A stretch of 64,000 bases of DNA from a virus. Its lineage: Duplodnaviria > Caudoviricetes. How positions within the stretch are numbered: position 1 is the stretch's first letter; each line of letters begins with the position of its first letter. Below, one piece after another: positions 14,232 through 63,384 of the stretch. The position numbers and the translations under genes are program-made. The notes below the pieces were generated by a model. It was not told the DNA's origin, made no database searches, and worked only from the letters and a program-made list of their open reading frames with translations. The DNA is taken from positions 45,564 through 109,563 of the IMG/VR virus record IMGVR_UViG_3300020379_000218; one strand, 5' to 3'.

Positions 14232-14468
14232 ATGGCATTAACGGTATCAAGTATTGTAGGTAATACATCTGGATTCATTAAGAACGATAGATACAATTCT
14301 CTATCGCCTGCAATGAAAACAGCGGTAGAATCTTTAGTCGCAGGACTAGACGCAATAGACTGGTCGCAACCACAAGATTTAGTAAACATTATTGAAACTA
14401 AAATTAGTGAAGTTGCAGCTGGTGACAGCGATGTAGAAACTGCTTTGACAACTTATTTTTCGGAGTAA
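14232..14468 (+). CDS. Hypothetical protein in head module
   Basis: GGAG RBS, tight packing. Confidence 0.55.
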   Translation: MALTVSSIVGNTSGFIKNDRYNSLSPAMKTAVESLVAGLDAIDWSQPQDLVNIIETKISEVAAGDSDVETALTTYFSE

Positions 14469-14471
14469 TTT

Positions 14472-14813
14472 ATGGCATTAAGTATCTCAACAAAAGTTGA
14501 CGATACCACAAAGGCTATAATTAACGCTAGTGGTGCGGACAACGAAAGCGGAACTTTATATTCTGCTGGGCAAAATGTATCGCTGGCAAATGTATATTAT
14601 GAAATTAGAGGAACAGGCACAGCGACTCTTAAACTCGGAGACCATTCTTTAAGTTTAACTGGGTTTGGTAATTGGGGTTTAAAAGAAGGCGAACCTCGTA
14701 AAGTAATTGAACAAGATTTAAACTCTTCAACTACTTTAGAAATTACTACAGACGCTAATGTGTCAAAATTTAATATGGCTGTAGAAGTACAGAAAGAGAC
14801 GGAGACAAAATAA
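14472..14813 (+). CDS. Hypothetical beta-rich head-module protein (paralog of next gene)
   Basis: GGAG RBS; shares motifs with 14815-15210. Confidence 0.55.
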   Translation: MALSISTKVDDTTKAIINASGADNESGTLYSAGQNVSLANVYYEIRGTGTATLKLGDHSLSLTGFGNWGLKEGEPRKVIEQDLNSSTTLEITTDANVSKFNMAVEVQKETETK

Positions 14814-14814
14814 A

Positions 14815-15210
14815 ATGGCAGATTTGGTTACACAACAAATTATATCAGATACGGCAGGAGTTAAGTATGTTGTAAAACAAACTAACTATTCAGACGGCAC
14901 AGGTGAAACAAACACCGTGATTGCTAATCCTACTACTTCTAATTTTATGACAGCAGATGGAACAAAAGAGATTGCAAAAGTGTGGTATTCTATTAATACT
15001 GCAAACCGAAAATCAGCAGTAGAGATTGCTTGGGGAGGCGCTACTGAAAATACAACTGCATTGTTATTGTCTGGACAAGGGTATTTAGACTTTAGAACTG
15101 CGGGAAATGATATTACTAATAATGCAACAAGTCCTAATGGATTTGTCTATTTGACAACAAAAGACTTTGCTTTAAACGATAATTACACGATTGTTGTTGA
15201 ATTTAGATAA
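14815..15210 (+). CDS. Hypothetical beta-rich virion protein
   Basis: GGAG RBS; Thr/Asn/Gly-rich; between gp20 and gp21. Confidence 0.6.
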   Translation: MADLVTQQIISDTAGVKYVVKQTNYSDGTGETNTVIANPTTSNFMTADGTKEIAKVWYSINTANRKSAVEIAWGGATENTTALLLSGQGYLDFRTAGNDITNNATSPNGFVYLTTKDFALNDNYTIVVEFR

Positions 15211-15217
15211 AAAATAT

Positions 15218-15250: not shown

Positions 15251-15898
15251 ATGAAACTTATTACAGAAACTCTGGAAAATGTAGAGTACATTACAGAAGA
15301 AACTAATGGCAAAACGAATTATAAGATTCGTGGTGTATTTCTACAATCTGAAATCAAAAACAGAAATGGAAGAGTTTATCCTAAAGATACATTAACACAA
15401 GAAGTTAATAGATACAATAGAGAATTTGTGGAACAGAAAAGAGCGTTTGGTGAATTAGGACATCCTGATGGACCAACGGTCAACTTGGAGAGAGTTAGTC
15501 ATATGATTACAAAACTCTATCCAGATGGCAACAACTTTATCGGTGAAGCAAAAGTAATGGACACACCCTACGGAAAGATTGTAAAAAATCTTATAGATGA
15601 AGGCGCTAAATTAGGCGTTTCTTCTCGTGGTATGGGTTCATTAGAGAGAAGTAGAAGTGGTGAAGCTAGGGTCGGAAACGACTTCTATCTTGCTACTGCT
15701 GCCGACATTGTGGCGGATCCAAGTGCTCCTGACGCTTTCGTAGAAGGAATTATGGAAGGTAAAGAGTGGATTTGGGACAATGGTGTTATTAAAGAAAAAG
15801 ATATAGAAGAATATAAACAATACATTAAGGAAGCAAAAAGACTAAAAATCGCTGAAGCGAAAGCTGAGGTATTTAGTAAGTTCCTTAAAGGATTGTAA
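15251..15898 (+). CDS. gp21: Prohead protease gp21
   Basis: MKLITE, NRNGRVYP, GELGHP, GVSSRGMGS, DIVADPSAPDA. Confidence 0.96.
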   Translation: MKLITETLENVEYITEETNGKTNYKIRGVFLQSEIKNRNGRVYPKDTLTQEVNRYNREFVEQKRAFGELGHPDGPTVNLERVSHMITKLYPDGNNFIGEAKVMDTPYGKIVKNLIDEGAKLGVSSRGMGSLERSRSGEARVGNDFYLATAADIVADPSAPDAFVEGIMEGKEWIWDNGVIKEKDIEEYKQYIKEAKRLKIAEAKAEVFSKFLKGL

Positions 15899-15968: not shown

Positions 15969-17147
15969 ATGGCCGAGACAGAAAAACAAGTTGCCGAAAT
16001 GACAGCTCCAGACGCTCCTAAAAAGAACGCCGTAGCTGCTGAAACTTCACCGTTAAAAAATGACGCTGAAGATTTAGGTGCTGCTGTAGTAAAACCTACA
16101 GATAGCAATCCAGACGCAACAAAAAAAGTTAAAGAAGTTTCAGGTGACGCACAGCAAAAAAACGCTGGTTCTGCTGAACCAATGCCTTCTGTAAAGAAGG
16201 AAGAAACTGCTTCTGAAGGCGAGAAGATTTCCGAGGGAGAAATGCCTGACGGTCTGAAAAAATTCCTAGATAAAAAGAAAGAAAAAGAAGAAACTAAAAA
16301 AGAAGGCTATAAGATGAAAAAAGAATCTGAAGCTGAAAAAGTGGACTCTAAATCTGAAAAATCTGAGGAAACAGCTGACCAGAAAGCAAAAGATGTTGAT
16401 GTAAAAGAACACATTGACGCTTTGACCTCTGGCGAATCAGACTTGTCGGAAGAATTTAAAACGAAAGCTGCTACTATTTTTGAAGCTGCGATTAAATCTA
16501 AAGTAAAAGAAATCGCTGAAGAAATGGAAGTAGACTACAATAAGAAATTTGAAGAAGAAAGTGCTAAAGCAAAATCTGAACTTGTTGAAAAAGTTGACAA
16601 TTACTTAAACTATGTTGTAAACGAGTGGATGAAAGAAAACGAACTTGCTATTGAAAAAGGTATCAAGGGAGAAATTGCTGAGGACTTCATCAACGGTCTG
16701 AAAAAACTTTTTGAAGACCATTATATTGATGTACCTGATGAAAAATATGATGTGTTAGAAGACCAAGCTTCAAAAATTGAGTCGTTAGAGAAAAAACTAA
16801 ACGAACAGATTGCGAAGAATGTTGACTTGAATAGTAAGGCTAACTTACTTGAAAAATCTGACATTTTAGCTGATGTTGCTTCTGATTTAACAGATGTCTC
16901 TAAAGAGAAATTTGCTAAACTTACAGAAGAAGTTGAATTTTCAACGGCTGAAGATTTTAGAAACAAGGTAACTACTATCAAAGAAAGTTATTTTGGTGCT
17001 AAAAAAGAAGCTAATTCTGACAGCGAAGTAGATAATGCGGTAGCTGATAATGCTGGTGTAGACAATACGCAAGACTTATCTAGTGCAATGGCTGCTTATA
17101 CTACCGCTATTAGTAAAACAAAAGACATTAAATTGTCTATAAAATAA
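15969..17147 (+). CDS. gp22: Prohead core scaffold gp22
   Basis: LSEEFKTKAATIFEAA, VDNYLNYVVNEWMKEN; charged coiled coil. Confidence 0.93.
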   Translation: MAETEKQVAEMTAPDAPKKNAVAAETSPLKNDAEDLGAAVVKPTDSNPDATKKVKEVSGDAQQKNAGSAEPMPSVKKEETASEGEKISEGEMPDGLKKFLDKKKEKEETKKEGYKMKKESEAEKVDSKSEKSEETADQKAKDVDVKEHIDALTSGESDLSEEFKTKAATIFEAAIKSKVKEIAEEMEVDYNKKFEEESAKAKSELVEKVDNYLNYVVNEWMKENELAIEKGIKGEIAEDFINGLKKLFEDHYIDVPDEKYDVLEDQASKIESLEKKLNEQIAKNVDLNSKANLLEKSDILADVASDLTDVSKEKFAKLTEEVEFSTAEDFRNKVTTIKESYFGAKKEANSDSEVDNAVADNAGVDNTQDLSSAMAAYTTAISKTKDIKLSIK

Positions 17148-17169: not shown

Positions 17170-18510
17170 ATGTACTTATCTGAAAACTACCAAAAAAAGT
17201 GGCAGCCAGTATTAGAGCATCCTGATTTACCAAAAATCACGGATACTTATAAACGAGCTGTTACCAGTGTTATCCTTGAGAACCAAGAGAAAGCACTAAA
17301 AGAAGACGCTCAGTTTATGACTGAAACTGCGCCTACTAACTCAACAGGTTCTTCAATCGCTAACTGGGATCCAATTTTGATTTCATTAGTAAGAAGAGCA
17401 ATGCCAAACCTTATCGCTTACGATATTGCTGGCGTTCAACCTATGAGCGGTCCTACTGGTCTTATATTTGCAATGAGAAGCAGATACAAAGCTCAGGACG
17501 GTACTGAAGCATTATTTGATGAAGCAGAATCACAATTCTCAGCTGCAGGAACTAAAGCAAACATTCCTGGTTCAGCTGGTACTTCTTCTGCTGGAGAAAC
17601 TAACCCTGCTGTACTTAACGACTCATCACCTGGAGCATACACTGCTGAAGGTGGAATGTCTACTGCTAACGCAGAAGCATTAGGAGACGGTTCAACATCT
17701 GGATACGAGCAATTTGCTGAAATGGCATTCTCAATTGAGAAGTCAACGGTAACTGCTAAGTCAAGAGCATTGAAAGCCGAGTACACAATGGAACTTGCAC
17801 AAGACCTTAAAGCTATTCACGGTTTAGACGCTGAGTCTGAACTTGCGAATATTCTTTCTGCTGAAATCCTTGCTGAAATCAATAGAGAAGTTGTAAGAAC
17901 TATCTATGTAAATTCAGAAAAAGGTGCTCAGACTGACACAACTACTGCTGGTATCTTTGATTTAGATACTGACTCAAACGGTAGATGGTCTGTTGAAAGA
18001 TTTAAAGGACTTATGTTCCAATTAGAAAGAGACGCTAACGCTATCGCACAAAGAACAAGAAGAGGAAAAGGTAACATAATTATCTGTTCTTCTGATGTTG
18101 CTAGTGCATTACAAATGGCTGGTGTTTTAGACTATACACCTGCATTAAACAACAATTTATCTGTTGATGACGCAGGAAACACTTTTGCTGGAGTATTAAA
18201 CGGCAGATTTAAAGTGTACATTGATCCATATTCAGCGAACCAAGCTAGCAAACAATTCTATGTTGTTGGTTACAAAGGTACTTCACCTTATGACGCTGGT
18301 ATGTTCTACTGCCCTTATGTACCATTACAAATGGTTAGAGCAGTTGGTCAGGACACTTTCCAACCGAAAATCGGTTTCAAAACTAGATACGGCCTACAAG
18401 CAAATCCTTTTGCTGAAGCTTCTTCTAGTACAGACGCTGTAATTGACGGTGCTGGTGCTGCTAACGCTAACAGATACTACAGAAAAGTACAAATCGTTAA
18501 CCTTGCGTAA
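17170..18510 (+). CDS. gp23: Major capsid protein gp23
   Basis: LISLVRRAMPNLIAYD, GVQPMSGPTGLIFAMR, AKSRALKAEY, FQPKIGFKTRYG; predicted maturation site FMTE|T. Confidence 0.98.
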   Translation: MYLSENYQKKWQPVLEHPDLPKITDTYKRAVTSVILENQEKALKEDAQFMTETAPTNSTGSSIANWDPILISLVRRAMPNLIAYDIAGVQPMSGPTGLIFAMRSRYKAQDGTEALFDEAESQFSAAGTKANIPGSAGTSSAGETNPAVLNDSSPGAYTAEGGMSTANAEALGDGSTSGYEQFAEMAFSIEKSTVTAKSRALKAEYTMELAQDLKAIHGLDAESELANILSAEILAEINREVVRTIYVNSEKGAQTDTTTAGIFDLDTDSNGRWSVERFKGLMFQLERDANAIAQRTRRGKGNIIICSSDVASALQMAGVLDYTPALNNNLSVDDAGNTFAGVLNGRFKVYIDPYSANQASKQFYVVGYKGTSPYDAGMFYCPYVPLQMVRAVGQDTFQPKIGFKTRYGLQANPFAEASSSTDAVIDGAGAANANRYYRKVQIVNLA

Positions 18511-41496: not shown

Positions 41497-41939
41497 CAGA
41501 CAATGTAAAATGGTCACCGGAAGATATGCTAGAGGTCACAATCAAGCAACCTGACGATTTCCTAAAAGTAAGAGAGACATTAACAAGAATAGGTGTTGCT
41601 AGTCGTAAAGACAAAACACTATTTCAAAGTTGCCACATATTACACAAACAAGGCAAGTATTACATAGTACACTTCAAAGAACTATTTGCTTTAGATGGTA
41701 AGAAAGCAACCTTAACAGACAATGATATTCAGCGTAGAAATACTATTGCAGTATTACTAACAGATTGGAACTTAATTACGATAGTAAAACCAGAGGCTGC
41801 TGAAAACAAAGCACCACTATCACAAATTAAAGTGCTACCTTTCAAAGAAAAGAAAGAATGGAATCTTTCTGCCAAGTATAATATTGGTAAGAAGTTAGAC
41901 GAAAAAACCGAAGACAAAGTTTCAAATGAAGGTAAATAA
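41493..41939 (+). CDS. regA: Translational repressor RegA
   Basis: DDFLKVRETLTRIG, QSCHILHKQGKYYIVHFKELF. Confidence 0.96.
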   Translation: MTDNVKWSPEDMLEVTIKQPDDFLKVRETLTRIGVASRKDKTLFQSCHILHKQGKYYIVHFKELFALDGKKATLTDNDIQRRNTIAVLLTDWNLITIVKPEAAENKAPLSQIKVLPFKEKKEWNLSAKYNIGKKLDEKTEDKVSNEGK

Positions 41940-43432
41940 TGCAAGTAAAACAATTCAGCGACTTCCTATCTGAACAAACATTAGATAGAGAAAACAAACC
42001 AATAACTATTGCAGTTATCACAAAGACAAATCCTAATCTCAAAAAGAGAAAGGTTGGTGGTAAAGAAAGTAAAGAGTTAACGGTTAAGTTGATTGATGAA
42101 GCTTGCCAAGCAGTAAATCTAAAGTGTGTAGTTATTGAAACTAGACACGCAATTATCACAGGTAAAGACGAAGAAAAGAATACTTTGACCGTATATAACT
42201 ATGACGGCAAAGATAACGAACATACATTTATAGGTAAAGATACCGTTTGTATTACTAGAGCAGGTTCTGTAGAAGACGAAAGTGGTTTATCAATCGTTTC
42301 TGCTTTTCAAAACTCTGGTTCATTTATGTGTAATACAAGAAATGCAATGTTAACTTGTAATAACAAATTGACTACTGCTTTATTATTTGAAAAGTTTGGT
42401 ATACCAACACCGAAGACAGCGTTTGTATCTAACGAGAAAAACATAGATGACGCTTTAGAACTAATTGGTGGTGTAGATAAGTTTCCAGTAATATTAAAAA
42501 CACTAACAGGTACACAAGGTATCGGAGTTGTAAAGGTAGAGAGTTATGATTCTCTAGTTTCAACTATTCAAGCATTGTGGAAACATAATGCAGAATTACT
42601 AATACAAGAATTTATGCCTAGTGATTTTGATATTAGAACTTTCGTAGTAGATAACAAGATATTTGCAAGTACAAAAAGAATTCAAGGCTCAGACGATTTT
42701 AGAACTAATACTCATAGAGGTGCTGAAGCAGTACCATATAAGTTAAAAGACGAGGAAATAGAGGTCATACTCCGTGCTAGCAGGGCGTCAAAGGCGTATC
42801 TTTGTGGAGTTGACCATATCATACATAAAGGCAAACCTTATGTATTAGAAGTAAATGGTTCACCAGGAACTGGTGCAGAATATGAAGGATATATCTATAA
42901 AGACTTCTATTCGGATCCAGAAACAAAAGGTTCAATTAAAGGTGCTCAACTTGTAAAGAATTTAATCAAGTGGGTATCAGATAGAAAGAATTGGGATAGA
43001 CAATCTATTGCTGAAGTAGGTTGGTTAGAAACAATAGAAGTCGGCGACATTGGTAAAATGAGAGCGAAGATGGACACTGGTAACGGTGCTCACGCTTGTT
43101 CAATGCACGCTGAGAATATTAAAGTAGAAGGTAAAAAGGTAACCTGGAAGTACAACGGCAAGACATATTCGGCACCGAAGTACGGGGAATCAAAAGTCTT
43201 TCGTGCTAACGCAGAAGGTGAAGAACCATCAGAAGTTAGAACAACGGTACTACTTGACCTTACCTTTAACGGTTTCACATATCCTGATATTGAATTCGGA
43301 CTTGACCAAAGACCAAGGTCTGGTTCCGATGTTCTACTTAATAGAGAAGTAATCAGAATGTTCAATGCGTCTGTTAATCCTAATAGAACATTTGTACTAT
43401 CAAAAAGATTACCGCCTATTGACAAAGACTAA
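41939..43432 (+). CDS. rimK: RimK-family ATP-grasp ligase fused to a RimK-associated (RimB-like) aspartyl protease
   Basis: FPVILK, GTQGIGV, LIQEF, DFRTN, LEVNGSPG; C-terminal AKMDTGNG and LLNRE. Confidence 0.85.
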   Translation: MQVKQFSDFLSEQTLDRENKPITIAVITKTNPNLKKRKVGGKESKELTVKLIDEACQAVNLKCVVIETRHAIITGKDEEKNTLTVYNYDGKDNEHTFIGKDTVCITRAGSVEDESGLSIVSAFQNSGSFMCNTRNAMLTCNNKLTTALLFEKFGIPTPKTAFVSNEKNIDDALELIGGVDKFPVILKTLTGTQGIGVVKVESYDSLVSTIQALWKHNAELLIQEFMPSDFDIRTFVVDNKIFASTKRIQGSDDFRTNTHRGAEAVPYKLKDEEIEVILRASRASKAYLCGVDHIIHKGKPYVLEVNGSPGTGAEYEGYIYKDFYSDPETKGSIKGAQLVKNLIKWVSDRKNWDRQSIAEVGWLETIEVGDIGKMRAKMDTGNGAHACSMHAENIKVEGKKVTWKYNGKTYSAPKYGESKVFRANAEGEEPSEVRTTVLLDLTFNGFTYPDIEFGLDQRPRSGSDVLLNREVIRMFNASVNPNRTFVLSKRLPPIDKD

Positions 43433-52368: not shown

Positions 52369-52397
52369 TTGACACTATGCTGTATGCGTGTTATAGT
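52369..52397 (+). promoter_or_regulatory. Early promoter module
   Basis: T tracts then GC-TTGACA-17-TATAGT, then AAAAGGA RBS. Confidence 0.75.
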
Positions 52398-52804: not shown

Positions 52805-52867
52805 GCTTGACAAATCCATAAATATGTAGTAGTATTAATCATTATATAAACTTTTATGGAGATATAA

Positions 52868-54290: not shown

Positions 54291-54298
54291 TATAAATA
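54291..54298 (+). promoter_or_regulatory. Late promoter heading the 54366-63331 operon
   Basis: Exact TATAAATA in the intergenic gap. Confidence 0.75.
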
Positions 54299-54365
54299 TA
54301 AGAGACGAAGTGAGTATTATATTGATGGATAGTTTATTTGTATATGGAAAAAATGAAGGACAACA

Positions 54366-55580
54366 ATGTTTAGTTTTAAAGGATATTCTAGCTCAGGTAC
54401 GAACACACACCTAGAGCATTTAGAAGACGAAATTATTAATAACGGAGCCAAAGGCGGTAGAAACGCAATAGCATTTTTACAATCTTTGCAGAAAATGTTA
54501 ACAGGTAATGTTAGCAATAGAGTAAATGTAACCGTTAAGTGGGACGGTGCTCCTGCGATAGTATGTGGAATCAATCCTGAAAACGGCAAATTCTTTGTCG
54601 GTACAAAATCTGTATTCAATAAAACTCCTAAAATCAATTACACTTCAGCAGACATTAATAGAAATCACCCAGGTGGTGTCGGTGCAAAATTACAAGTTGC
54701 ATTGAGAGAATTAAAAAAATTGGGTATAAGAGGTATCGTACAAGGCGATTGTCTCTTTACCAATGAAGATAAGAAAGTGGCAAACATAGATGGACAATCT
54801 ATGATTACCTTTACTCCTAACACAATAACATATGCTATGCCTGTTGCTAGTGCTGTCGGTCGTAAGATTGCTCGTGCTAGAATGGGCATAGTGTTCCATA
54901 CACAATATACAGGTTCAAAGATGTCTGAACTAAATGCCAACTATGGATATGTTAAAGGTATTAGAAGTGGTAGTGTATGGGTACCATCAGCAGAATATAA
55001 AGACGCAAGTGGTAGTGCCAGTTTCAATCGTGGAGAAGTTGCCAAGTTTAATGCACAATTAAGAATGGCACAAGGAAGTTTATCTAAAGCAGGTCCTATG
55101 TTAAATCAGTTTGATAGTAGAGACCCGAATAGTGTAGGTTTTAAATTAAAAACTTATTTCAATAGTATCGTAAGAGGTACACAAGGTATGGGAAGTGTTA
55201 AATCATTAGTAGATGGTTTTGGTCCATACTATGAGAATTTTATCAATGCAGAAATAGACGCAAGAAAAACAGCAAAAGGTAAAGAAAAATTTAAACAAGC
55301 AAAAGAAGAGAATATGAAATTTATTGCAAGAAATAAACAAGCACTTTATTTTGCAATTGCAACATATGTAACCTTACAGAATTGCAAAAACATTGTACTA
55401 CAAAAACTAGCACAGATACAATCAATCGGACATTTTTTAAGAACTGATAATGGTTATAAGGTAACATCACCTGAAGGTTATGTTGCAACAGATAAGATTG
55501 GTAATGTAGTTAAACTTGTAGACAGATTAGAATTTAGTAGAGCAAACTTTACTATTGCAAAAGATTGGGTGAAAGGATAA
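54366..55580 (+). CDS. Conserved T4-like protein with ligase-type nucleotidyltransferase motifs
   Basis: NTHLEHLED; TVKWDG (KxDG), VQGD, EGYV, VKLVDR. Confidence 0.6.
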   Translation: MFSFKGYSSSGTNTHLEHLEDEIINNGAKGGRNAIAFLQSLQKMLTGNVSNRVNVTVKWDGAPAIVCGINPENGKFFVGTKSVFNKTPKINYTSADINRNHPGGVGAKLQVALRELKKLGIRGIVQGDCLFTNEDKKVANIDGQSMITFTPNTITYAMPVASAVGRKIARARMGIVFHTQYTGSKMSELNANYGYVKGIRSGSVWVPSAEYKDASGSASFNRGEVAKFNAQLRMAQGSLSKAGPMLNQFDSRDPNSVGFKLKTYFNSIVRGTQGMGSVKSLVDGFGPYYENFINAEIDARKTAKGKEKFKQAKEENMKFIARNKQALYFAIATYVTLQNCKNIVLQKLAQIQSIGHFLRTDNGYKVTSPEGYVATDKIGNVVKLVDRLEFSRANFTIAKDWVKG

Positions 55581-55581
55581 T

Positions 55582-56181
55582 ATGGACACATTTAAACAAT
55601 ACCTATTTAATTATTTAAATGAAGCAAAACAAACCAGAGTTATCATAATGGGTGGTCCTGGAAGTGGTAAATCAACTTATAGTGAATACATTATAAGACA
55701 CTTCGGTATCAAACATATTTACCCAGGTGGTTTATTAAGAAAAGAAATTGATAAAGGTGGTCCTGAAGGACAAAAGATTAAGAACTTATTAGACCAAGGT
55801 AAGTTTGCACCTAACGAAACGGTATTAAAATTAGTTAAGAAAGCATTACAAGAGAAAGACGCTTCAAAAGGTTATGTGTTAGATGGTTATCCTAGATATA
55901 TGCAACAAGTAAGAGATATGGAACAAAATGGTATCGCTTATGATGTTGTTGTATTCCTTGATGTGAGTAAAGAAGAAGTTATTAAGAGACTTACAAAGAG
56001 AGGAAGAAAAGATGATAAGCCAGATATTATTAATGATAGAATCCAGTTATACAAAAAAGAGACAGGACCTGCCATTGAACATTTTAGGAAAAGACCTGGG
56101 TTTATATCTGTCAAAGCAGAAGGAAAAGAACCTGGCGATATTGCGAAAGACATTATTAAGGAGATAGAAAATGCAATTTAA
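55582..56181 (+). CDS. adk: Adenylate/NMP kinase, short LID
   Basis: GGPGSGKST, GGLLRKE, LDGYPR, RGRKDD. Confidence 0.9.
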   Translation: MDTFKQYLFNYLNEAKQTRVIIMGGPGSGKSTYSEYIIRHFGIKHIYPGGLLRKEIDKGGPEGQKIKNLLDQGKFAPNETVLKLVKKALQEKDASKGYVLDGYPRYMQQVRDMEQNGIAYDVVVFLDVSKEEVIKRLTKRGRKDDKPDIINDRIQLYKKETGPAIEHFRKRPGFISVKAEGKEPGDIAKDIIKEIENAI

Positions 56182-56488
56182 TGAATATCAAACTCTCGCT
56201 GCCAACACAGCAATATATCCACTTGCAAGTAAGGTAACTTATCCTGCATTAGGATTATGTGGTGAAGCAGGTGAAGTCGCAGAAAAAGTTAAGAAGAATA
56301 TTAGAGACGGTGCAAGTGAAACATTTAAAGAAGATATGAAAAAAGAACTAGGTGATGTACTATGGTATGTATCAGCACTCGCTAGAGATTTAGATATTAC
56401 ACTTGAAGATGTTGCAAATGCAAACTTAAAAAAATTAGAAGATAGAAAGAATAGAAACAAAATTAAAGGTAGTGGAGATGACCGATAA
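56171..56488 (+). CDS. mazG: MazG-like NTP pyrophosphohydrolase
   Basis: LGLCGEAGEVAEKVKK, KELGDVLWY, NLKKL. Confidence 0.9.
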   Translation: MQFNEYQTLAANTAIYPLASKVTYPALGLCGEAGEVAEKVKKNIRDGASETFKEDMKKELGDVLWYVSALARDLDITLEDVANANLKKLEDRKNRNKIKGSGDDR

Positions 56489-56768
56489 GTATAGACCTTT
56501 ACCAGATAATATTACAATTAAATTATCGCCCATAGAAGGTTTTGGTTTATTCGCTACAAAGAAGATTGATAAGATGACAGATTTAGGTATATCTCATTTA
56601 ACTATGGGAAGAGAATTATATAGAACACCACTTGGTGGTTTCTTAAATCATAGTGATAAACCTAATTGTCAAAAGATAGAAGTTGATGGAAAATATTATG
56701 TACAAACACTAACAGATATTAAAAAAGGAGAAGAGTTAACTTTAAAGTATACTCTATATAAAGTATGA
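56478..56768 (+). CDS. Minimal SET-domain methyltransferase
   Basis: SPIEGFGLFA, FLNHSDKPNC, IKKGEELTLKY. Confidence 0.88.
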   Translation: MTDKYRPLPDNITIKLSPIEGFGLFATKKIDKMTDLGISHLTMGRELYRTPLGGFLNHSDKPNCQKIEVDGKYYVQTLTDIKKGEELTLKYTLYKV

Positions 56769-57439
56769 AGACTTTTAAAGCACTAATACAAGAAGGCGTT
56801 TACGACCCAGGTATATTCAAAGCGTTCTTCCTTGCAGGTGGTCCAGGTTCTGGTAAATCATATGTTACCAATAGAACAACTGGAGGTATGGGTTTGAAGT
56901 TAGTAAACTCCGATATAAGATTTGAAAAATATTTAACAAAGGCAGGTCTCTCATTGAAAATGCCTGACAAAGAAGCAGACGCTAGAGACCCATTAAGACA
57001 AAGAGCAAAACAGGTTACTGGTGACCAGATGGACTTATATATTAGAAATAGATTAGGTCTAGTCATTGACGCTACTGGTAGAGACTATAACATTATTAAT
57101 AAACAAAGAAGTATGTTAAGAATGTTAGGTTACGATACTTATATGATGTTCGTAAATACTTCACTAGAAGTTGCATTAGCAAGAAACAAAGTAAGAACAA
57201 GAAGCGTACCACCTGAAATCGCAAAGAAAAGTTGGTCTGTCGTACAAAGTAATATCGGTAGATTTCAAAACTTATTTGGTGGTCAGAATATGATTGTTGT
57301 TGATAATAATAACGCAAGTGAAGATACATTAAATAAAGTATACACACGAATTAGAGGTTTAGTTAACAAACCTGTCCAGAATTTTGTTGCAAAAAGATGG
57401 ATAGAAAACGAGTTATCTAAAAAGAAAAATGCCAGATAA
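56765..57439 (+). CDS. Zeta-toxin/polynucleotide-kinase-like P-loop kinase
   Basis: LAGGPGSGKS, VNSD, LVIDATG, RNKVRTRSVP. Confidence 0.8.
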   Translation: MKTFKALIQEGVYDPGIFKAFFLAGGPGSGKSYVTNRTTGGMGLKLVNSDIRFEKYLTKAGLSLKMPDKEADARDPLRQRAKQVTGDQMDLYIRNRLGLVIDATGRDYNIINKQRSMLRMLGYDTYMMFVNTSLEVALARNKVRTRSVPPEIAKKSWSVVQSNIGRFQNLFGGQNMIVVDNNNASEDTLNKVYTRIRGLVNKPVQNFVAKRWIENELSKKKNAR

Positions 57440-60386
57440 TTTTCAAAAGAAACATAGAATGGACTATGTAAAAGAATTATTGAAGAAGTGCAAGTCTGTA
57501 GCAGAAGACTTGAATGATTTAACACACCCTAAAGTAGAACCAAAACCTGTACAAAATATTGTAGGTGATTGGAAGAAAATAGATGTAGCACCACCTACAG
57601 AAAACGATAGTCCAGAAACTAAAAGAGAAATGGAAATGATGACTGAACTATTTAAAGAAAGAAATAGTGCAGTTGAGAAAAGTGTAGAGAACCACGACCA
57701 AGAAGTATTTTATGGTATAGAAAAATACCTAATGCAATACAACCTTGAATATAATATGAAAGATATTAAAGAGTTGAAAAAAGCAGGTAGTGGTGTAGTA
57801 AGACATTATAAAAACAAATTTCAAAGACCAAGACCATATGAACTTGCAGAAGCAATGAATATGAAGTTTGATAGTATGGAGTTAATTTCAGATAGTATGA
57901 AAACTCCTGCGTATCCATCTGGTCATAGTTTACAAAGTAGACTACTTGCAGAATACTATGGTAAATTATATCCTAAACATAAAGATAATCTAATAGAACT
58001 TGCTGATGAATGTGGTTATGGTAGAGTTGTTGCAGGTTGGCATTATCCATCTGACCATTTAGTTTCTGTAAAAATTGCTCAGGAATTAATCAATATGGTT
58101 AATATTCAGGAAAGTATTATAGATATTCCTAGAAAAACATATGCACCAGGTGTATTTGATGACGAAGATACAAACAATCCTAAATTAAAACCAAGTGTAG
58201 TAAAACAAATACAAGACCAAATTAAAGTATTTGCAAAAGATTATCCAGTAATTAAGTATGGTTTAATCGGTTCTATATTAACAAAGAGATATAGAAATGA
58301 CGCAGATTTAGATATTAATGTATTGTTTGATGTACCAGTAGAAAAAAGAGAAGAAGAAAGAGTTAATCTTTCACAAAAATATTTAAGTGCAAAGAATCCT
58401 AATAGTGTGAATGGTAAATTAATACCAGGCACAAAACATCCTATTAACTATTATTTCTTAACAGACGAAGAAACATATAAATCACAAGAGAAGAAAGCAG
58501 ACGCAGTATTTTCAATTACTAGAAATGTATTTGTAAAAAGACCAGATGACTTTACTTTTAATGTAAGTGATTATATTGATGACTTCAATAAGAAAGTACA
58601 AGAAATAGATGTAGTCAAAGGTGAATTAAAAAGAGACATTATTGACTATGACGAATTACAAGAATTAGGTCCTAACGATATAGAAAACTTACAAGGTAGA
58701 ATAGAAAGTAAGTTAGAAGAAATAGAAAACGATATAGAGGACATAATAAAAATTGGTGACGGAGTTGACGCAGATAGACGAAGTGCGTTTGACAAAGATA
58801 TGTCGCCAGACGAAATCAGAAAGTATGGTATAAAAAATAGATTGCCTAAAAATGTAATCTATAAGATGTTAGAGAAATATCATTACATTACTTTCTATAA
58901 GAAGTGCAAGAAGATTTTAGATGACGGCGAGGTAACAGACGCTGAAATAGATAGTCTAAAAACTGAAGCAGTAGGCACACCTAAAAAACATATAGCATTT
59001 ACATTTGGTAGATTTAATCCACCAACGATAGGCCACGAAAAGTTAATTAACAAAGTGGCGTCTGTAGGTGCTAATGATTATCTCATTGTGCCAAGTGGTT
59101 CGCAAGACCCAAAGAAAAATCCATTAAAAGTTAACGACAAGATTAGAGTTATGAAGTCTATGTTTCCTAGACACGCAAGTAAGATAAAACAAATTACTGG
59201 TGCTAGAACAGCGATTGAAGTTGTTAATAAATTAAATGGCAAAGCAAACGAAATAACAATGGTAGTTGGTTCAGATAGAGTAAGAGAATTTGAAACACTA
59301 CTTAAAAAGTACAACGGTGTACAAGCAAGAGGAACTAATTACGAGTTTGATAAAATCAATATCGTATCTGCTGGCGAAAGAGACCCAGACGCTGAAGGCG
59401 CTATGGGAATGTCAGCAAGTAAAATGAGAGACGCTGCCACTAAAGGTGATTTAGTATCTTTCAAAAAAGGTTTACCAACTACATTTAGAGACAAAGAAAA
59501 ATTATTTGGTCTAATTAGAAAAGGTATGAACTTGGCTGCTGGTTATGGTCCTGGTTTAGGAACATATAAACCTATGACAAGTATTGAAAACTTTACTCAA
59601 TGGCAATTGAGAGACTTGTATATCCGTGAACAAATATTTAACATAAATGATATGGCTGAAGACCAAGAACAAGAAATTACAGGTAAAGTAATTCGTAGAA
59701 GTACGAACTATATTGTGTTAGAAGATAATAATTCTAACTTACATAAATGTTGGATTTGGAATTGTATTCCACAATCTTTCATAGACGAGACTAAACTACA
59801 CGAAATTAATTTAAATGTTGATTATGGTTTTGAAGCCGTGTCGGAAACGGAAGTCAAAATGAACAACGAAGAATATGGTAAGAAATTACCACAAGATAAA
59901 GATGTAAAAGATAAGAAAGGTACTCAACCGAAGAAGTACTATAAAGATATGAAGAAAGGTGAGAAAGACAAAAGAGCTGCTCACTTTGCAAAACAAAAAT
60001 ATAAGAAGTCTGATGGAGACAAAGATTATAAGGCTGCACCAGGCGACAAAGACGCAAAGACTAAAACTAGTGTACATACGAAGAAGTATCAACAGATGTA
60101 TGGTAAAGAAGCGTATGAGATAGGTAAAGATTGGGCTAATCATACTAAAGATATGACACCTGGAGAGACTAGTCCAGAGCGTCCTATAACGGCAAAAGAG
60201 CGTGCTGAACAAAGTCCAGAGAGAATTAATGCAGAAGATATACAGAAATGGGCTTCTTCAAGTGAGACTATTGATAAATATAAGAAACGATACGGCGAAG
60301 AGTATCAAAAAGAATTAGATGAAGCTGTGAATAAAATGGAGGAAAGATTGAAAGTACAATCTTTTAAAGAGTATGTTAAGATTTAG
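57429..60386 (+). CDS. Multidomain protein: PAP2 phosphatase, Pol-beta nucleotidyltransferase, HIGH-type cytidyltransferase-like domain and C-terminal modules
   Basis: KNKFQRPRP, PSGH, GRVVAGWHYPSD; IGS...DADLD; FGRFNPPTIGH and MSASKMR. Confidence 0.85.
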   Translation: MPDNFQKKHRMDYVKELLKKCKSVAEDLNDLTHPKVEPKPVQNIVGDWKKIDVAPPTENDSPETKREMEMMTELFKERNSAVEKSVENHDQEVFYGIEKYLMQYNLEYNMKDIKELKKAGSGVVRHYKNKFQRPRPYELAEAMNMKFDSMELISDSMKTPAYPSGHSLQSRLLAEYYGKLYPKHKDNLIELADECGYGRVVAGWHYPSDHLVSVKIAQELINMVNIQESIIDIPRKTYAPGVFDDEDTNNPKLKPSVVKQIQDQIKVFAKDYPVIKYGLIGSILTKRYRNDADLDINVLFDVPVEKREEERVNLSQKYLSAKNPNSVNGKLIPGTKHPINYYFLTDEETYKSQEKKADAVFSITRNVFVKRPDDFTFNVSDYIDDFNKKVQEIDVVKGELKRDIIDYDELQELGPNDIENLQGRIESKLEEIENDIEDIIKIGDGVDADRRSAFDKDMSPDEIRKYGIKNRLPKNVIYKMLEKYHYITFYKKCKKILDDGEVTDAEIDSLKTEAVGTPKKHIAFTFGRFNPPTIGHEKLINKVASVGANDYLIVPSGSQDPKKNPLKVNDKIRVMKSMFPRHASKIKQITGARTAIEVVNKLNGKANEITMVVGSDRVREFETLLKKYNGVQARGTNYEFDKINIVSAGERDPDAEGAMGMSASKMRDAATKGDLVSFKKGLPTTFRDKEKLFGLIRKGMNLAAGYGPGLGTYKPMTSIENFTQWQLRDLYIREQIFNINDMAEDQEQEITGKVIRRSTNYIVLEDNNSNLHKCWIWNCIPQSFIDETKLHEINLNVDYGFEAVSETEVKMNNEEYGKKLPQDKDVKDKKGTQPKKYYKDMKKGEKDKRAAHFAKQKYKKSDGDKDYKAAPGDKDAKTKTSVHTKKYQQMYGKEAYEIGKDWANHTKDMTPGETSPERPITAKERAEQSPERINAEDIQKWASSSETIDKYKKRYGEEYQKELDEAVNKMEERLKVQSFKEYVKI

Positions 60387-60912
60387 TGATTACGCAAACA
60401 AGATAACTACTAGTTTACACTATCACATAGAGAACAACATACCTCTTGCTGAAAACATTTATAGAGTACACAGCGAAGAGTTTTATGCCTTGTTTAGAGA
60501 AGCAAGACACTTATATAATGAAGGCCTTTTACAATGCGATAGTGAATGGGATGTAAAATTGTTAGAAACTAATATCGGAGAATTTGCCGATTACGAAGGT
60601 ATGAAAGTACCTTTAGATTGTCCGATACAAGAAGAAGACGAAAAGAATCCGCCTTTAAACAAACCAAAAAAAGGTGGACCTAAAAAGTTTTATGTCTTTG
60701 TAAGAGACGGTGAAAAGATTAAAAAGGTAACTTGGGGAGACACAACTGGTTTAAAAGTCAAATTGAATGACAAAGAAGCCAGAAAATCTTTTGCAGCTAG
60801 GCACAGATGTGACCAGCAGAAAGATAGAACAAAAGCCGCATATTGGGCTTGTAATCTTCCGAGATATGCGAAGTCATTAGGACTATCGGGAGGTGGTAAC
60901 TTTTACTGGTAG
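60373..60912 (+). CDS. Conserved hypothetical protein
   Basis: LNKPKKGGPKKFYVFV, ARKSFAARHRC, AAYWAC. Confidence 0.65.
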   Translation: MLRFSDYANKITTSLHYHIENNIPLAENIYRVHSEEFYALFREARHLYNEGLLQCDSEWDVKLLETNIGEFADYEGMKVPLDCPIQEEDEKNPPLNKPKKGGPKKFYVFVRDGEKIKKVTWGDTTGLKVKLNDKEARKSFAARHRCDQQKDRTKAAYWACNLPRYAKSLGLSGGGNFYW

Positions 60913-60915
60913 GAG

Positions 60916-61197
60916 GTGACGATGGAATTTTATGATATGCGACCAGATGAAACGGCGACGGAAGATGTATTTCAACGAAGTTTCAATCAGGATGCCAAAG
61001 AAGAAAATTTAGTTTGGCATAGAGATAAAAGAGATAGAGAGATAAGAATTATTGCAGGAGTAAATTGGAAATTACAAATGGACAATCAACTCCCAGTCGT
61101 TATGAAAGTCGGAGATGTTTTCAACATACCTAAGGAAACATTTCATAGAGTACATAAAGGTGAAGGTAGACTAATAATAGAAATAAAGGAATCTTAG
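60916..61197 (+). CDS. Cupin-fold protein
   Basis: WHRD, IPKETFHRV; AGGAG RBS. Confidence 0.7.
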   Translation: MTMEFYDMRPDETATEDVFQRSFNQDAKEENLVWHRDKRDREIRIIAGVNWKLQMDNQLPVVMKVGDVFNIPKETFHRVHKGEGRLIIEIKES

Positions 61198-61206
61198 GAG
61201 AATAAA

Positions 61207-63024
61207 ATGACAAGATATACGCAATCAATGAGAGCCGCATTAGAAGAGGTGTGGGCAAATGATATTCAAATTGATGAAGGCAAAATGAAGACTATCGCAA
61301 CTCTCTTTGACCAGGGTAAATCTGCCGAAGACATTGCAAAGAAAATGAAGTTGCCACTAGCAACTATCAAAACAATTCTAGGTGAAGAAGATATTAAAGA
61401 AGATAATCTTTTAGAGTTTACAGACGCTCAAATTGCAAAACTTAAAAAAGAATATTCAGGACTTGCAGGTAAAAGAATTTCACTTGCGAGAGCAAACCAA
61501 TTAAGAAATATCTTTGATAGAATTGCAGATGTTCAATTACCTAAACTCTTCAAAGCAGACATTCCTTTTATTAGTGCTATGGCAGTATCTCGTATGATAC
61601 AAAAAGGTATCAAAGTACCTAAAGGTGTTAAACTAACAGCATTTGAAAATAAATCTTGGGACCAAGTTATTTCAGAATATACAGAATATGTTGAGTATAT
61701 GGCAAAGAACTCTGGTGAAGCAAGTAAGATTGCCTCTATGTTTAAAGGTAAAACTGGTGGTGGAGAAATTTCTAAATCTGGTTCAGAAGTTAGAATTGAT
61801 AGTGCAAAAGATGTTGAACCTATACACAACACGGTAATGAAAAACTTTCCTGATACTAGAATACTTACAAAAGAAGATGACGAATTAAAAGAAGGTACTG
61901 GAACTATCAAAGGTTTTAGAGACGACAAAGAAAAATCAAATATGATTTCACTTGCGAAACAACACGGACTTAAAGTTTCAGATGTTGCAGGTGGTATACA
62001 ATTAAAAGGTAATATGAGAAAGATATTAGATATGCAGTTGGCTGCTGGTTCACACTTGAAGACAGAAAGTTTAGATGAAGCAGTACTTGCTGGTAGAGAT
62101 TACAAATATACAGGTAAAGGTCCTGTAGAAATCAGTAAAGCAAACTTTAAAAAGATTTCAAAAGACTTTAAGAAGACAACACCAGGGCAAGAAATGATGG
62201 TAGTACTTGACCCTAAAACACACGGCACGGTACTTGCACCTGTTAAGTTTACAGAAGAAACAGAAAACGGTGAAGTAGATAGTGGTAAGATTAAATTAAA
62301 AGATTTAATTGGTAAGAAAGAAGACAAGAAAGAAGATAATAAAGAAAAGACTAAAGATACAATTGATGGTTTAAAAGACCAAATTCATATGTTGAAAACA
62401 AAATTAGAAAACGAAAAGAATAAGGCAATCAAACCTGAACCAAATCCTGATACAGGTGAAGTTCCTCTCCAAGTTGGTATTGCACATAAGATATTAAGAG
62501 ATAAAGAAAAAGCTGAAACAAAAAAGAAATCTGTAGATGAAGGCTTCGCTTCAGACGCACAAAGAAAAGCTGCGTTTGCAAACGGATATAAAGAAAAAGG
62601 TAAAGACAAAAAAGAAGATACAGACTTAACTAAAGACCAAATCAAACAAGTACACAAAAAGGCAGATGAATTACCGAAGAAGAAATTTAAAGACGCTTAT
62701 GGTAAAAAAGGTGATAGTGTAAGATATGGTACAGCAACTAATATAGTTAAGAAGAAATTAAATATAGAGAATAAAGACCATCCTGCTAAAATGAAGTACG
62801 AACAGATAGAAGGTCTTAAAAAGAAAGCAGAAAAATCTGGAATGCCATATGGTATTCTAAAGAAAGTTTACGATAGAGGAATGGCTGCCTGGAAAGGTGG
62901 ACATAGACCTGGTGCTAGTCAACATCAATGGGCATTTGCTAGAGTAAATTCATTCATAACAAAATCAAGTGGAACTTGGGGTGGGGCAGACAAAGACCTT
63001 GCCGCTAAAGTAAAAGGAAAGTAA
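61207..63024 (+). CDS. Lys/Glu-rich modular protein, probable internal head polyprotein
   Basis: Short modules separated by hydrophobic-x-E sites; C-terminal VYDRGMAAW...WAFARVNSF domain. Confidence 0.6.
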   Translation: MTRYTQSMRAALEEVWANDIQIDEGKMKTIATLFDQGKSAEDIAKKMKLPLATIKTILGEEDIKEDNLLEFTDAQIAKLKKEYSGLAGKRISLARANQLRNIFDRIADVQLPKLFKADIPFISAMAVSRMIQKGIKVPKGVKLTAFENKSWDQVISEYTEYVEYMAKNSGEASKIASMFKGKTGGGEISKSGSEVRIDSAKDVEPIHNTVMKNFPDTRILTKEDDELKEGTGTIKGFRDDKEKSNMISLAKQHGLKVSDVAGGIQLKGNMRKILDMQLAAGSHLKTESLDEAVLAGRDYKYTGKGPVEISKANFKKISKDFKKTTPGQEMMVVLDPKTHGTVLAPVKFTEETENGEVDSGKIKLKDLIGKKEDKKEDNKEKTKDTIDGLKDQIHMLKTKLENEKNKAIKPEPNPDTGEVPLQVGIAHKILRDKEKAETKKKSVDEGFASDAQRKAAFANGYKEKGKDKKEDTDLTKDQIKQVHKKADELPKKKFKDAYGKKGDSVRYGTATNIVKKKLNIENKDHPAKMKYEQIEGLKKKAEKSGMPYGILKKVYDRGMAAWKGGHRPGASQHQWAFARVNSFITKSSGTWGGADKDLAAKVKGK

Positions 63025-63025
63025 T

Positions 63026-63331
63026 ATGTCATATTTAAAAAGTAAACCTGGTTCAGTAGAAGAAGCGATAACAGCTGCAGTAATGCAAGAGAAGTTATCT
63101 CCTAAACAACAGAAACTAGATAAGAACAATAACGGTAAGATAGATGGTTCTGACCTTGCAAAATTAAGAGCAAAGAAAGAAGATAATACTGGAGATACGG
63201 TATTACCTAAATCACAGGAACCAAAAGACCCTATGAACATCAAGTCTAAAGAACCTGAAAAGAAAACTACTGAAAATCAGACAAAATCTGACAAGATAGA
63301 TGTTAATCCAAAGATAGATTATCAAGCATAA
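63026..63331 (+). CDS. Small EF-hand-like protein
   Basis: LDKNNNGKIDGSDL. Confidence 0.65.
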   Translation: MSYLKSKPGSVEEAITAAVMQEKLSPKQQKLDKNNNGKIDGSDLAKLRAKKEDNTGDTVLPKSQEPKDPMNIKSKEPEKKTTENQTKSDKIDVNPKIDYQA

Positions 63332-63355: not shown

Positions 63356-63384
63356 TTGACAAGGCTGATTTTTTATGTTAGTAT
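63356..63384 (+). promoter_or_regulatory. Early promoter module
   Basis: T tracts then GC-TTGACA-17-TAGTAT, then AAAAGGA RBS. Confidence 0.7.

Follow-up and report, generated by a model that had tools for sequence, protein, structure and literature searches.

We analysed a 64,000-nt window of an IMG/VR virus record (IMGVR_UViG_3300020379_000218, positions 45,564 to 109,563), in which an operon of ten open reading frames (ORFs; 54366-63331) includes an adenylate kinase (Adk) and a P-loop kinase that begin with a short leader peptide resembling the capsid-targeting sequence (CTS) of phage T4. The source record is a single 109.6-kb contig with a CheckV completeness estimate of 59% and a genome G+C content of 33%. 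The long ORFs of the window all lie on the plus strand, and T4-type head, tail, and replication genes are among them. Among named phages, Pelagibacter phage HTVC008M is the closest relative (about 50% protein identity); a megablast search with the operon found no match among 50,697 phage records, and relatives are detectable by protein comparison only. The phage is an uncultured, pelagimyophage-type T4-like phage. The operon follows directly after the gp41 helicase gene in the replication region; at the equivalent place after gp41, HTVC008M carries DUF6267, a kinase, and a cytidylyltransferase, and the cyanophages S-CAM9 and S-SZBM1 carry DUF6267 and a cytidylyltransferase. On assignments made with Pfam, PHROGs, and NCBIfam profiles, the operon is predicted to encode nucleotide- and RNA-end-handling enzymes. 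An earlier sequence-only reading of this DNA had described nine tightly coupled genes; the coupling is confirmed (intergenic gaps of -14 to +9 nt), and the count is corrected to ten. The promoter and the genes on which the leader question turns are the following.

54291..54298, plus strand: T4-type late promoter TATAAATA heading the operon, an exact match, 75 nt before the ATG at 54366
54366..55580, plus strand: DUF6267 protein, 404 aa, RNA-ligase-like nucleotidyltransferase (PF19782, E 8e-123)
55582..56181, plus strand: adenylate kinase, 199 aa, with a 14-residue leader, MDTFKQYLFNYLNE/A, the slash marking the candidate cut (PF00406, E 9e-40, from residue 22)
56765..57439, plus strand: P-loop kinase, 224 aa, polynucleotide kinase (PNK)-like, with a 10-residue full leader, MKTFKALIQE/GVYDPG (AAA_33, Zeta_toxin)
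57429..60386, plus strand: 985-aa fusion of a PAP2 phosphatase, a Pol-beta nucleotidyltransferase (NTase), and an NMNAT-like cytidylyltransferase, with a K-rich tail (Pfam, NCBIfam)
60373..60912, plus strand: ORF179 (phrog_7595), with the half leader MLRFSDY and no cut site

The late promoter proposed at 54291 is borne out, both as an exact TATAAATA on the plus strand and by its conservation. Among 75 related loci (IMG/VR contigs with sufficient upstream DNA), 68 carry TATAAATA 64-83 nt upstream of the DUF6267 start, and 5 further loci carry NATAAATA instead. The total number of TATAAATA octamers is not above chance (9 seen versus 11.7 expected); all 9 copies in the window lie on the plus strand, and 8 fall between genes, 13-75 nt ahead of a start, gp21 and gp22 included. 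An unusually long spacer (54299-54365) separates the promoter from DUF6267; its length stays within 64-83 nt across the 68 loci, which suggests a conserved 5' leader RNA.

The T4 CTS system is textbook knowledge. The published T4 peptide is MKTYQEFIAE, in which residues 4 and 7 serve targeting and residues 8 and 10 serve processing, and which by experiment is sufficient on its own for head loading in T4 (PMC9026906). The peptide strings quoted by the sequence-only reading are exact (MDTFKQYLFNYLNE/A, MKTFKALIQE/G, MFSFKGY, and MLRFSDY, with the 985-aa protein ending ...VQSFKEYVKI). Its claim that the motif recurs on several proteins holds in part: the full form, a targeting half plus L/I-x-E, is found on Adk and the kinase only, and DUF6267 and ORF179 carry half of it. 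In Adk and the kinase this leader is short and amphipathic and reads M-K-T-F-x-x-hydrophobic-L/I-x-E. A 10-residue scoring matrix was built from 60 unique leaders of Adk and kinase homologues (80 IMG/VR loci); neither the window nor any relative of more than 75% identity entered the training. When every T4 ATG followed by 50 or more codons (1326 positions) was scored with the matrix, gp61.1 came out on top, the internal proteins IPII and IPIII took ranks 2 and 3, and IPI took rank 5. In the window genome, the top N-termini are those of a RimK-like fusion at 41939 (14.3), the kinase (9.8), and Adk (8.5). Three N-termini of the 109.6-kb genome reach a score whose internal 9-mer rate is 1.9e-4, against 0.09 expected (P=1.3e-4), and two of the three belong to the operon. 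Aromatic residues at positions 4 and 7 are present in 3 of 10 operon genes and in 1 of 110 others, the latter a mis-called start (Fisher P=0.0016). By this comparison, the leader predicted on Adk and the P-loop kinase is the same signal as the T4 CTS. Short K/F-rich N-termini do arise easily in an A/T-rich genome, and the 33% G+C content, the brevity of the motif, and an octamer count that by itself does not exceed chance all fit a fortuitous resemblance. Such an origin can nevertheless hardly be credited in view of the three hits where 0.09 were expected, the conservation of the leaders among relatives, including an invariant boundary, and the positive ranking tests in T4 and, as described below, in the cyanophage S-CREM2.

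The codons that encode the leader differ from gene to gene, and selection therefore acts on the peptide. Spread of the leaders as DNA, in the manner of a recombination cassette, was ruled out because both codons and upstream regions differ among the genes. The gene that heads the T4 ranking, gp61.1 (NC_000866, 18966-19130, minus strand), encodes 54 aa, starts MKTFKEFIKE, and outscores the internal proteins; it occupies the same gp41-gp61 interval as the marine block.

Leaderless homologues, the starting points of cellular models, and AlphaFold models indicate that the leader is an addition to the enzymes. The window Adk (start MDTFKQY...; candidate cut LNE14/A) passes PF00406 with 136.7 bits against a cut-off of 26.8 and contains the P-loop GGPGSGKST; it scores 154.9 against the NCBIfam adk subfamily, under the cut-off of 168, so that its membership is shown at the PF00406 level. 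Cellular adk models align from residue 19-20 of the window protein. All 120 of the 120 best database homologues of Adk bear a leader, many of them as leader plus MRIVMLGGPG, and two Adk homologues are leaderless and start MRIIML.. as cellular enzymes do. A hydrophobic-x-E site falls at positions 9-14 in 24 of 26 Adk N-termini, with one at 25. For the kinase (candidate cut IQE10/G), leaders of homologues were aligned by anchoring on the conserved mature start, as was done throughout; the 46 unique leaders, 10-20 residues long, have E at P1 in 46/46 and L/I at P3 in 46/46. The leaders of the NTase-cytidylyltransferase homologues (n=43; 3-30 residues) have E at P1 in 42/43 and a hydrophobic P3 in 41/43. 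Glutamate at P1 with a hydrophobic P3 at the boundary between leader and mature protein matches the cleavage rule of the prohead protease gp21. The kinase model (AlphaFold2) has a predicted local distance difference test (pLDDT) score of 87.0, with a mean of 49 over residues 1-10. Its top five Foldseek matches are the kinase of Clostridium thermocellum Pnkp (E 2e-6, TM 0.57/0.72), with adenylate kinases close behind; the sequence matches phrog_505 polynucleotide kinase (E 2e-5), and a sequence search of the PDB returned nothing below E 0.1.

Relatives of the kinase occur in several other arrangements. In two IMG/VR loci (L077 and L079), the kinase is fused with the NTase-cytidylyltransferase in one 910-aa chain that starts MKFKEFLLQE/GLYDPG, which provides a Rosetta-stone link between genes that the window carries separately. 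The Melnitz kinase starts MKTFAELQE/G, with GATAAATA 59 nt upstream, and is located among baseplate genes. Ralstonia phage RsoM2USA, a 344-kb jumbo phage, has consecutive genes at 360-2244 that start MKFSDYILE, MNQTFKQFLTE, and MTTFKEYLLE, the last being a homologue of the window kinase, and Atu_ph07 retains VTE/G at an internal junction.

The N-terminus of the 985-aa fusion is not CTS-like (matrix score -23), and the protein contains an internal boundary, NIQE(228)/SIIDIPR, at the junction between its PAP2 and NTase parts (about 58101-58133). Unfused homologues start MRFKDFIKE/SIIDIPRR exactly at this junction, and other fused forms keep MRKTFKE/S. We read the 985-aa protein as descended from a putative cargo protein that bore a leader. 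Since the old leader boundary still has its cut site, the protein may be packaged and split at this relic. Its cytidylyltransferase part is orthologous to SSZBM1_140 and S-CREM2 gp154, both detected in virions (31-43% identity). At the other end of the gene, the core of the leader occurs twice within 60354-60395, 18 nt apart and in different frames, as SFKEY in the C-terminus of the 985-aa protein and as RFSDY in the N-terminus of ORF179. Homologues of ORF179 begin MLSFSDY or, in locus L081, MKTFKEFENIDE; in relatives, the protein upstream of ORF179 either stops immediately ahead of the motif (...KMIRNL) or has the motif as its ending (...KMLSFKDYVKF). The duplication suggests an old in-frame junction that was later split. 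A programmed frameshift joining the two proteins at FKEY/FSDY was considered and rejected (the frame offset is +1 and there is no canonical in-frame slippery heptamer); plain overlapping start-stop coupling is the simpler account.

DUF6267 presents the leader in various stages of completeness. Residues 1-11 of the window protein (MFSFKGYSSSG) form a half leader with F4 and Y7 and without L/I-x-E. Within the family, 24 of 62 diverse representatives have a full leader ending in L/I/V-x-E right before N-T-H-L-E-H, and 12 of the 62 have none; the cyanophage proteins are leaderless and start MAKNTHLEH. The MFSFKGF peptide is nearly invariant across homologues of 58-90% protein identity. The motif K58-x-D60-G61 (KxDG) is invariant in 59 sequences. 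The AlphaFold2 model has a pLDDT of 90.7, with values under 50 at residues 1-11, and its top 12 matches in VIA-align are all ATP-dependent RNA/DNA ligases, with Z scores of 8.2-6.0, in the middling range. Foldseek with this model gave no clear match, and a PDB sequence search returned nothing below E 0.1. These partial leaders bear on the idea that all of them are decaying relics of ancestral head cargo and that the enzymes now work in the cytoplasm as auxiliary metabolic genes. The window DUF6267 has indeed lost the L/I-x-E retained by many of its family, in the fusion a PAP2 domain now precedes the buried leader, the leader of the window Adk is longer and has D as its second residue, and the leader is entirely missing from the cyanophage DUF6267 proteins. 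We regard general decay as improbable, since purifying selection clearly acts on the leaders of the kinase and Adk over hundreds of contigs, the DUF6267 peptide has scarcely changed among its homologues, and even the relic junction of the 985-aa protein still reads I-Q-E/S.

The window encodes the machinery that would read such a signal, together with one further leader-bearing protein outside the operon.

15251-15898, plus strand: gp21 prohead protease, 40% identical to T4 gp21
15969-17147, plus strand: gp22 scaffold (PF25623 T4_CASP, E 2e-73)
17170-18510, plus strand: gp23, with the site FMTE52/T
41939..43432, plus strand: fusion of a RimK-type ATP-grasp and a retropepsin-like domain, carrying the best leader of the genome (14.3), MQVKQFSDFLSE/Q

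The gp23 site was correctly identified from the sequence: FMTE(52)/T aligns column for column with FLTE/A of T4 gp23. In 67 related contigs, the RimK-like leader recurs in the conserved form MQ[VI]PKFKDFITE.

Published virion proteomes of cyanophages connect the leader with particles. For the cultured T4-like cyanophage S-CREM2, a proteome of 52 virion proteins has been published (PMC10665884). Among the 1389 candidate starts of its 174.9-kb genome, the matrix placed the gp154 cytidylyltransferase, the gp6 SAM hydrolase, gp155, and gp136 at ranks 1 to 4 and gp156 at rank 6, all of them virion-detected; the virion kinase gp14, which has a GTG start, scores 9.9, and virion gp13 shares the FLTE ending. 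The predicted cuts fall behind FLTE in gp154, gp13, and gp14, behind FLEE in gp6, and behind FFSE in gp136. In this single proteome, six of six motif-bearing proteins are present (hypergeometric P=1.4e-4). The genes gp154, gp6, gp136, and gp13 and the gp15-12 operon are each preceded, at a distance of 27-30 nt, by a late-promoter motif. The cytidylyltransferase orthologue is virion-detected in four published proteomes (S-SZBM1, S-SM1, S-SCSM1, and S-CREM2), and that of S-SZBM1 starts MRFRQFIIE/A. Repeating the whole-genome ranking in S-SZBM1 gave no significant result, one of the three best leaders being virion-detected.

Several small cyanophage ORFs carry near-perfect leaders, namely SSZBM1_192 (MKTFKQYITE) and SSZBM1_191 (MKSFKSFLSE) at 122311-123125 of S-SZBM1, and 095 (MKTFKQFQDLIE) and 093 (MKTFRQFVNDITE) at 14462-15217 of S-CAM9; by their sequences, they resemble cyanophage equivalents of T4's internal proteins. 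SSZBM1_191 and SSZBM1_192 sit between two terminase genes, as does the virion-detected S-CREM2 gp136. The virion-detected "Cas9-like" gp12 of S-CREM2 (OR473000, 7704-10313, minus strand) has no leader at its annotated Met and has LRFASFMAE/A about 17 residues in; the annotated start may be wrong.

Taken together, these data make it somewhat probable that the leader-bearing enzymes of the operon are head cargo directed by a T4-type CTS and injected with the DNA. That these enzymes are head cargo was the core of the sequence-only reading, and it is supported by the blind T4 match, the S-CREM2 proteome, the boundary rule, the leaderless homologues and AlphaFold models, the maturation machinery, and the promoter. 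The extension of that reading to the whole operon is not upheld: five of the ten genes, encoding MazG, SET, cupin, ORF605, and ORF101 products, have no leader, DUF6267 and ORF179 have no cleavage site, and the N-terminus of the 985-aa protein scores far from the signal. This uneven distribution itself weighs against head loading, and so do other observations. The best T4 match, gp61.1, is an uncharacterised ORF between genes 61 and 41 whose packaging is not known; in none of the 67 related loci does a late promoter lie within 150 nt of the RimK-like carrier; the top two leaders of S-SZBM1 (gp191 and gp192) are not among its 30 reported virion proteins; and the cyanophage proteome papers themselves caution about possible co-purification of abundant late proteins with virions. 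In addition, the invariant L/I-x-E-G of the kinase could partly be a constraint of the kinase fold.

Much of this would also be expected if the leader were a shared N-terminal peptide with a role outside the capsid, either boosting translation through an A/T-rich start or docking the enzymes on a replisome or nucleotide-synthesis complex, with detection in virions reflecting abundance and co-purification. The position of the operon beside gp41 in the replication region, and that of gp61.1 in the corresponding region of T4, fit such a role, as do the promoterless RimK-like gene, the absence of gp191 and gp192 from virions, and the contamination raised by the proteome authors themselves. We consider it rather unlikely all the same: the motif is kept as a peptide despite differing codons, even in a phage of 48% G+C; the leaders end in the gp21 rule (46/46 and 42/43); the same motif is sufficient for head loading in T4 (PMC9026906); it singles out virion proteins in S-CREM2; and the DUF6267 promoter is late-type and conserved.

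For the window phage, we infer packaging, cleavage, ejection, and function of the leader-bearing enzymes along the following lines. The proteins would be synthesised late, and the leader would dock them onto the gp22 scaffolding core of the prohead. There, gp21 would cut after the Glu of L/I-x-E, as at FMTE/T of gp23, and the mature enzymes would remain in the head beside the DNA and enter the host with it. DUF6267 and ORF179, which keep the targeting half only, may be targeted yet left uncut. The untagged MazG, SET, cupin, ORF605, and ORF101 proteins may act in the cytoplasm or ride along through protein contacts.

The proposed head cargo resembles the T4 cargo proteins (IPI, IPII, IPIII, and Alt, which load onto the scaffold core and are cut by gp21) in its leader of about 10 residues with K2, T/S3, an aromatic residue at 4, hydrophobic residues at 7 and 8, and E10, in the L/I-x-E cut site, in the homologues of gp21, gp22, and gp23, in the late promoter, and in the recovery of T4 internal proteins by a matrix trained on marine leaders. 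Unlike the small basic anti-restriction proteins of T4, the window cargo would consist of folded enzymes, encoded in the replication region after gp41 and away from the T4 ip loci; the marine leaders range from 3 to 30 residues, and some members have half a signal. The virion cytidylyltransferases and kinases of S-SM1, S-SZBM1, S-SCSM1, and S-CREM2 share with the window an orthologous module in the same block after gp41, and the detected orthologues bear leaders. The window module, in contrast, is fused behind PAP2 and Pol-beta NTase parts, and its companions Adk and the PNK-like kinase are specific to pelagimyophages. Searches turned up no close Adk homologue in HTVC008M or Melnitz.

As for what the cargo does, the enzyme set looks by analogy like an RNA-end healing-and-sealing kit. 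With T4 Pnkp plus Rnl1, bacterial Pnkp-Hen1, and fungal Trl1 it has in common a KxDG enzyme of candidate ligase fold (scoring Z 8.2-7.0 against RNA ligases), a Pnkp-like kinase, a phosphatase, and nucleotidyltransferases; it differs from them in showing no sequence-level membership, in a phosphatase that is of the PAP2 type and not of the HAD or metallophosphoesterase type, and in structural scores that are middling. The likeliest job of the cargo would be RNA or nucleotide "healing and sealing" by a kit that is ready at injection; its members may include the RNA-ligase-like enzyme, the PNK-like kinase, the phosphatase, the Pol-beta NTase, the NMNAT-like enzyme, and Adk. A wider and more doubtful proposal, which we put forward tentatively, is that the most abundant of the marine myophages (pelagimyophages and, in part, cyanomyophages) use a T4-type peptide to pre-load their capsids with a conserved RNA/nucleotide-repair kit, injected against host defences that target RNA or nucleotides or to jump-start slow, streamlined hosts. 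On that proposal, genes catalogued as auxiliary metabolic genes would be virion effectors.

Marine phage genomics lists adk and "cytidylyltransferase" as auxiliary metabolic genes, and work on pelagimyophages treats adk as metabolic; the cyanophage proteome papers report cytidylyltransferases and kinases in virions, leave contamination open, and make no link to a targeting peptide. A literature search, with subscription journals outside its reach, found no paper tying the CTS to marine or cyanophage members of the T4-like group; its sole hit was a general review of T4, and two reviews of the T4 superfamily are silent on it. If head loading is correct, the T4 internal-protein system would be widened from small anti-restriction proteins to enzyme kits. 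A shared address peptide with a gp21 cut site would offer a single, simple explanation for the puzzling kinases and cytidylyltransferases of cyanophage virions, and virion cargo could be predicted from metagenomic sequences by the leader rule. The phages concerned infect SAR11 and picocyanobacteria, which are among the most numerous hosts on Earth, and the cut-site rule predicts exact mature N-termini that can be sought in existing mass-spectrometry data.

The remaining genes of the operon, all without a leader, are the following.

56171..56488, plus strand: MazG-type pyrophosphohydrolase (PF03819, E 2e-14; phrog_229)
56478..56768, plus strand: small SET-domain protein (PF00856, E 1e-11)
60922..61197, plus strand: small protein with a weak cupin match (PF07883, E 1.3e-3, 18.9 bits against a Pfam cut-off of 27.2)
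61207..63024, plus strand: ORF605, K/E-rich, with a DUF5824 C-terminus (PF19141, E 7e-16)
63026..63331, plus strand: ORF101, the final gene of the unit, with no family match

The MazG start MQFNEYQ was caught by a loose form of the leader pattern and was dropped as a candidate, the phrog_229 MazG profile aligning from residue 1. The C-terminus of ORF605 matches that of the HTVC008M cytidyltransferase gp130. After ORF101, a sigma-70-like promoter (TTGACA-17-TAGTAT, 63356-63384) begins the next gene. It is one of the near-consensus sigma-70-type promoters (TTGACA-17-TATAGT or TAGTAT) that flank the late unit, at 52369-52397, 52807-52835, and 63356-63384, and that precede ORF93/tRNA-Arg, a phrog_1462 gene, and a 5'-nucleotidase-like gene.

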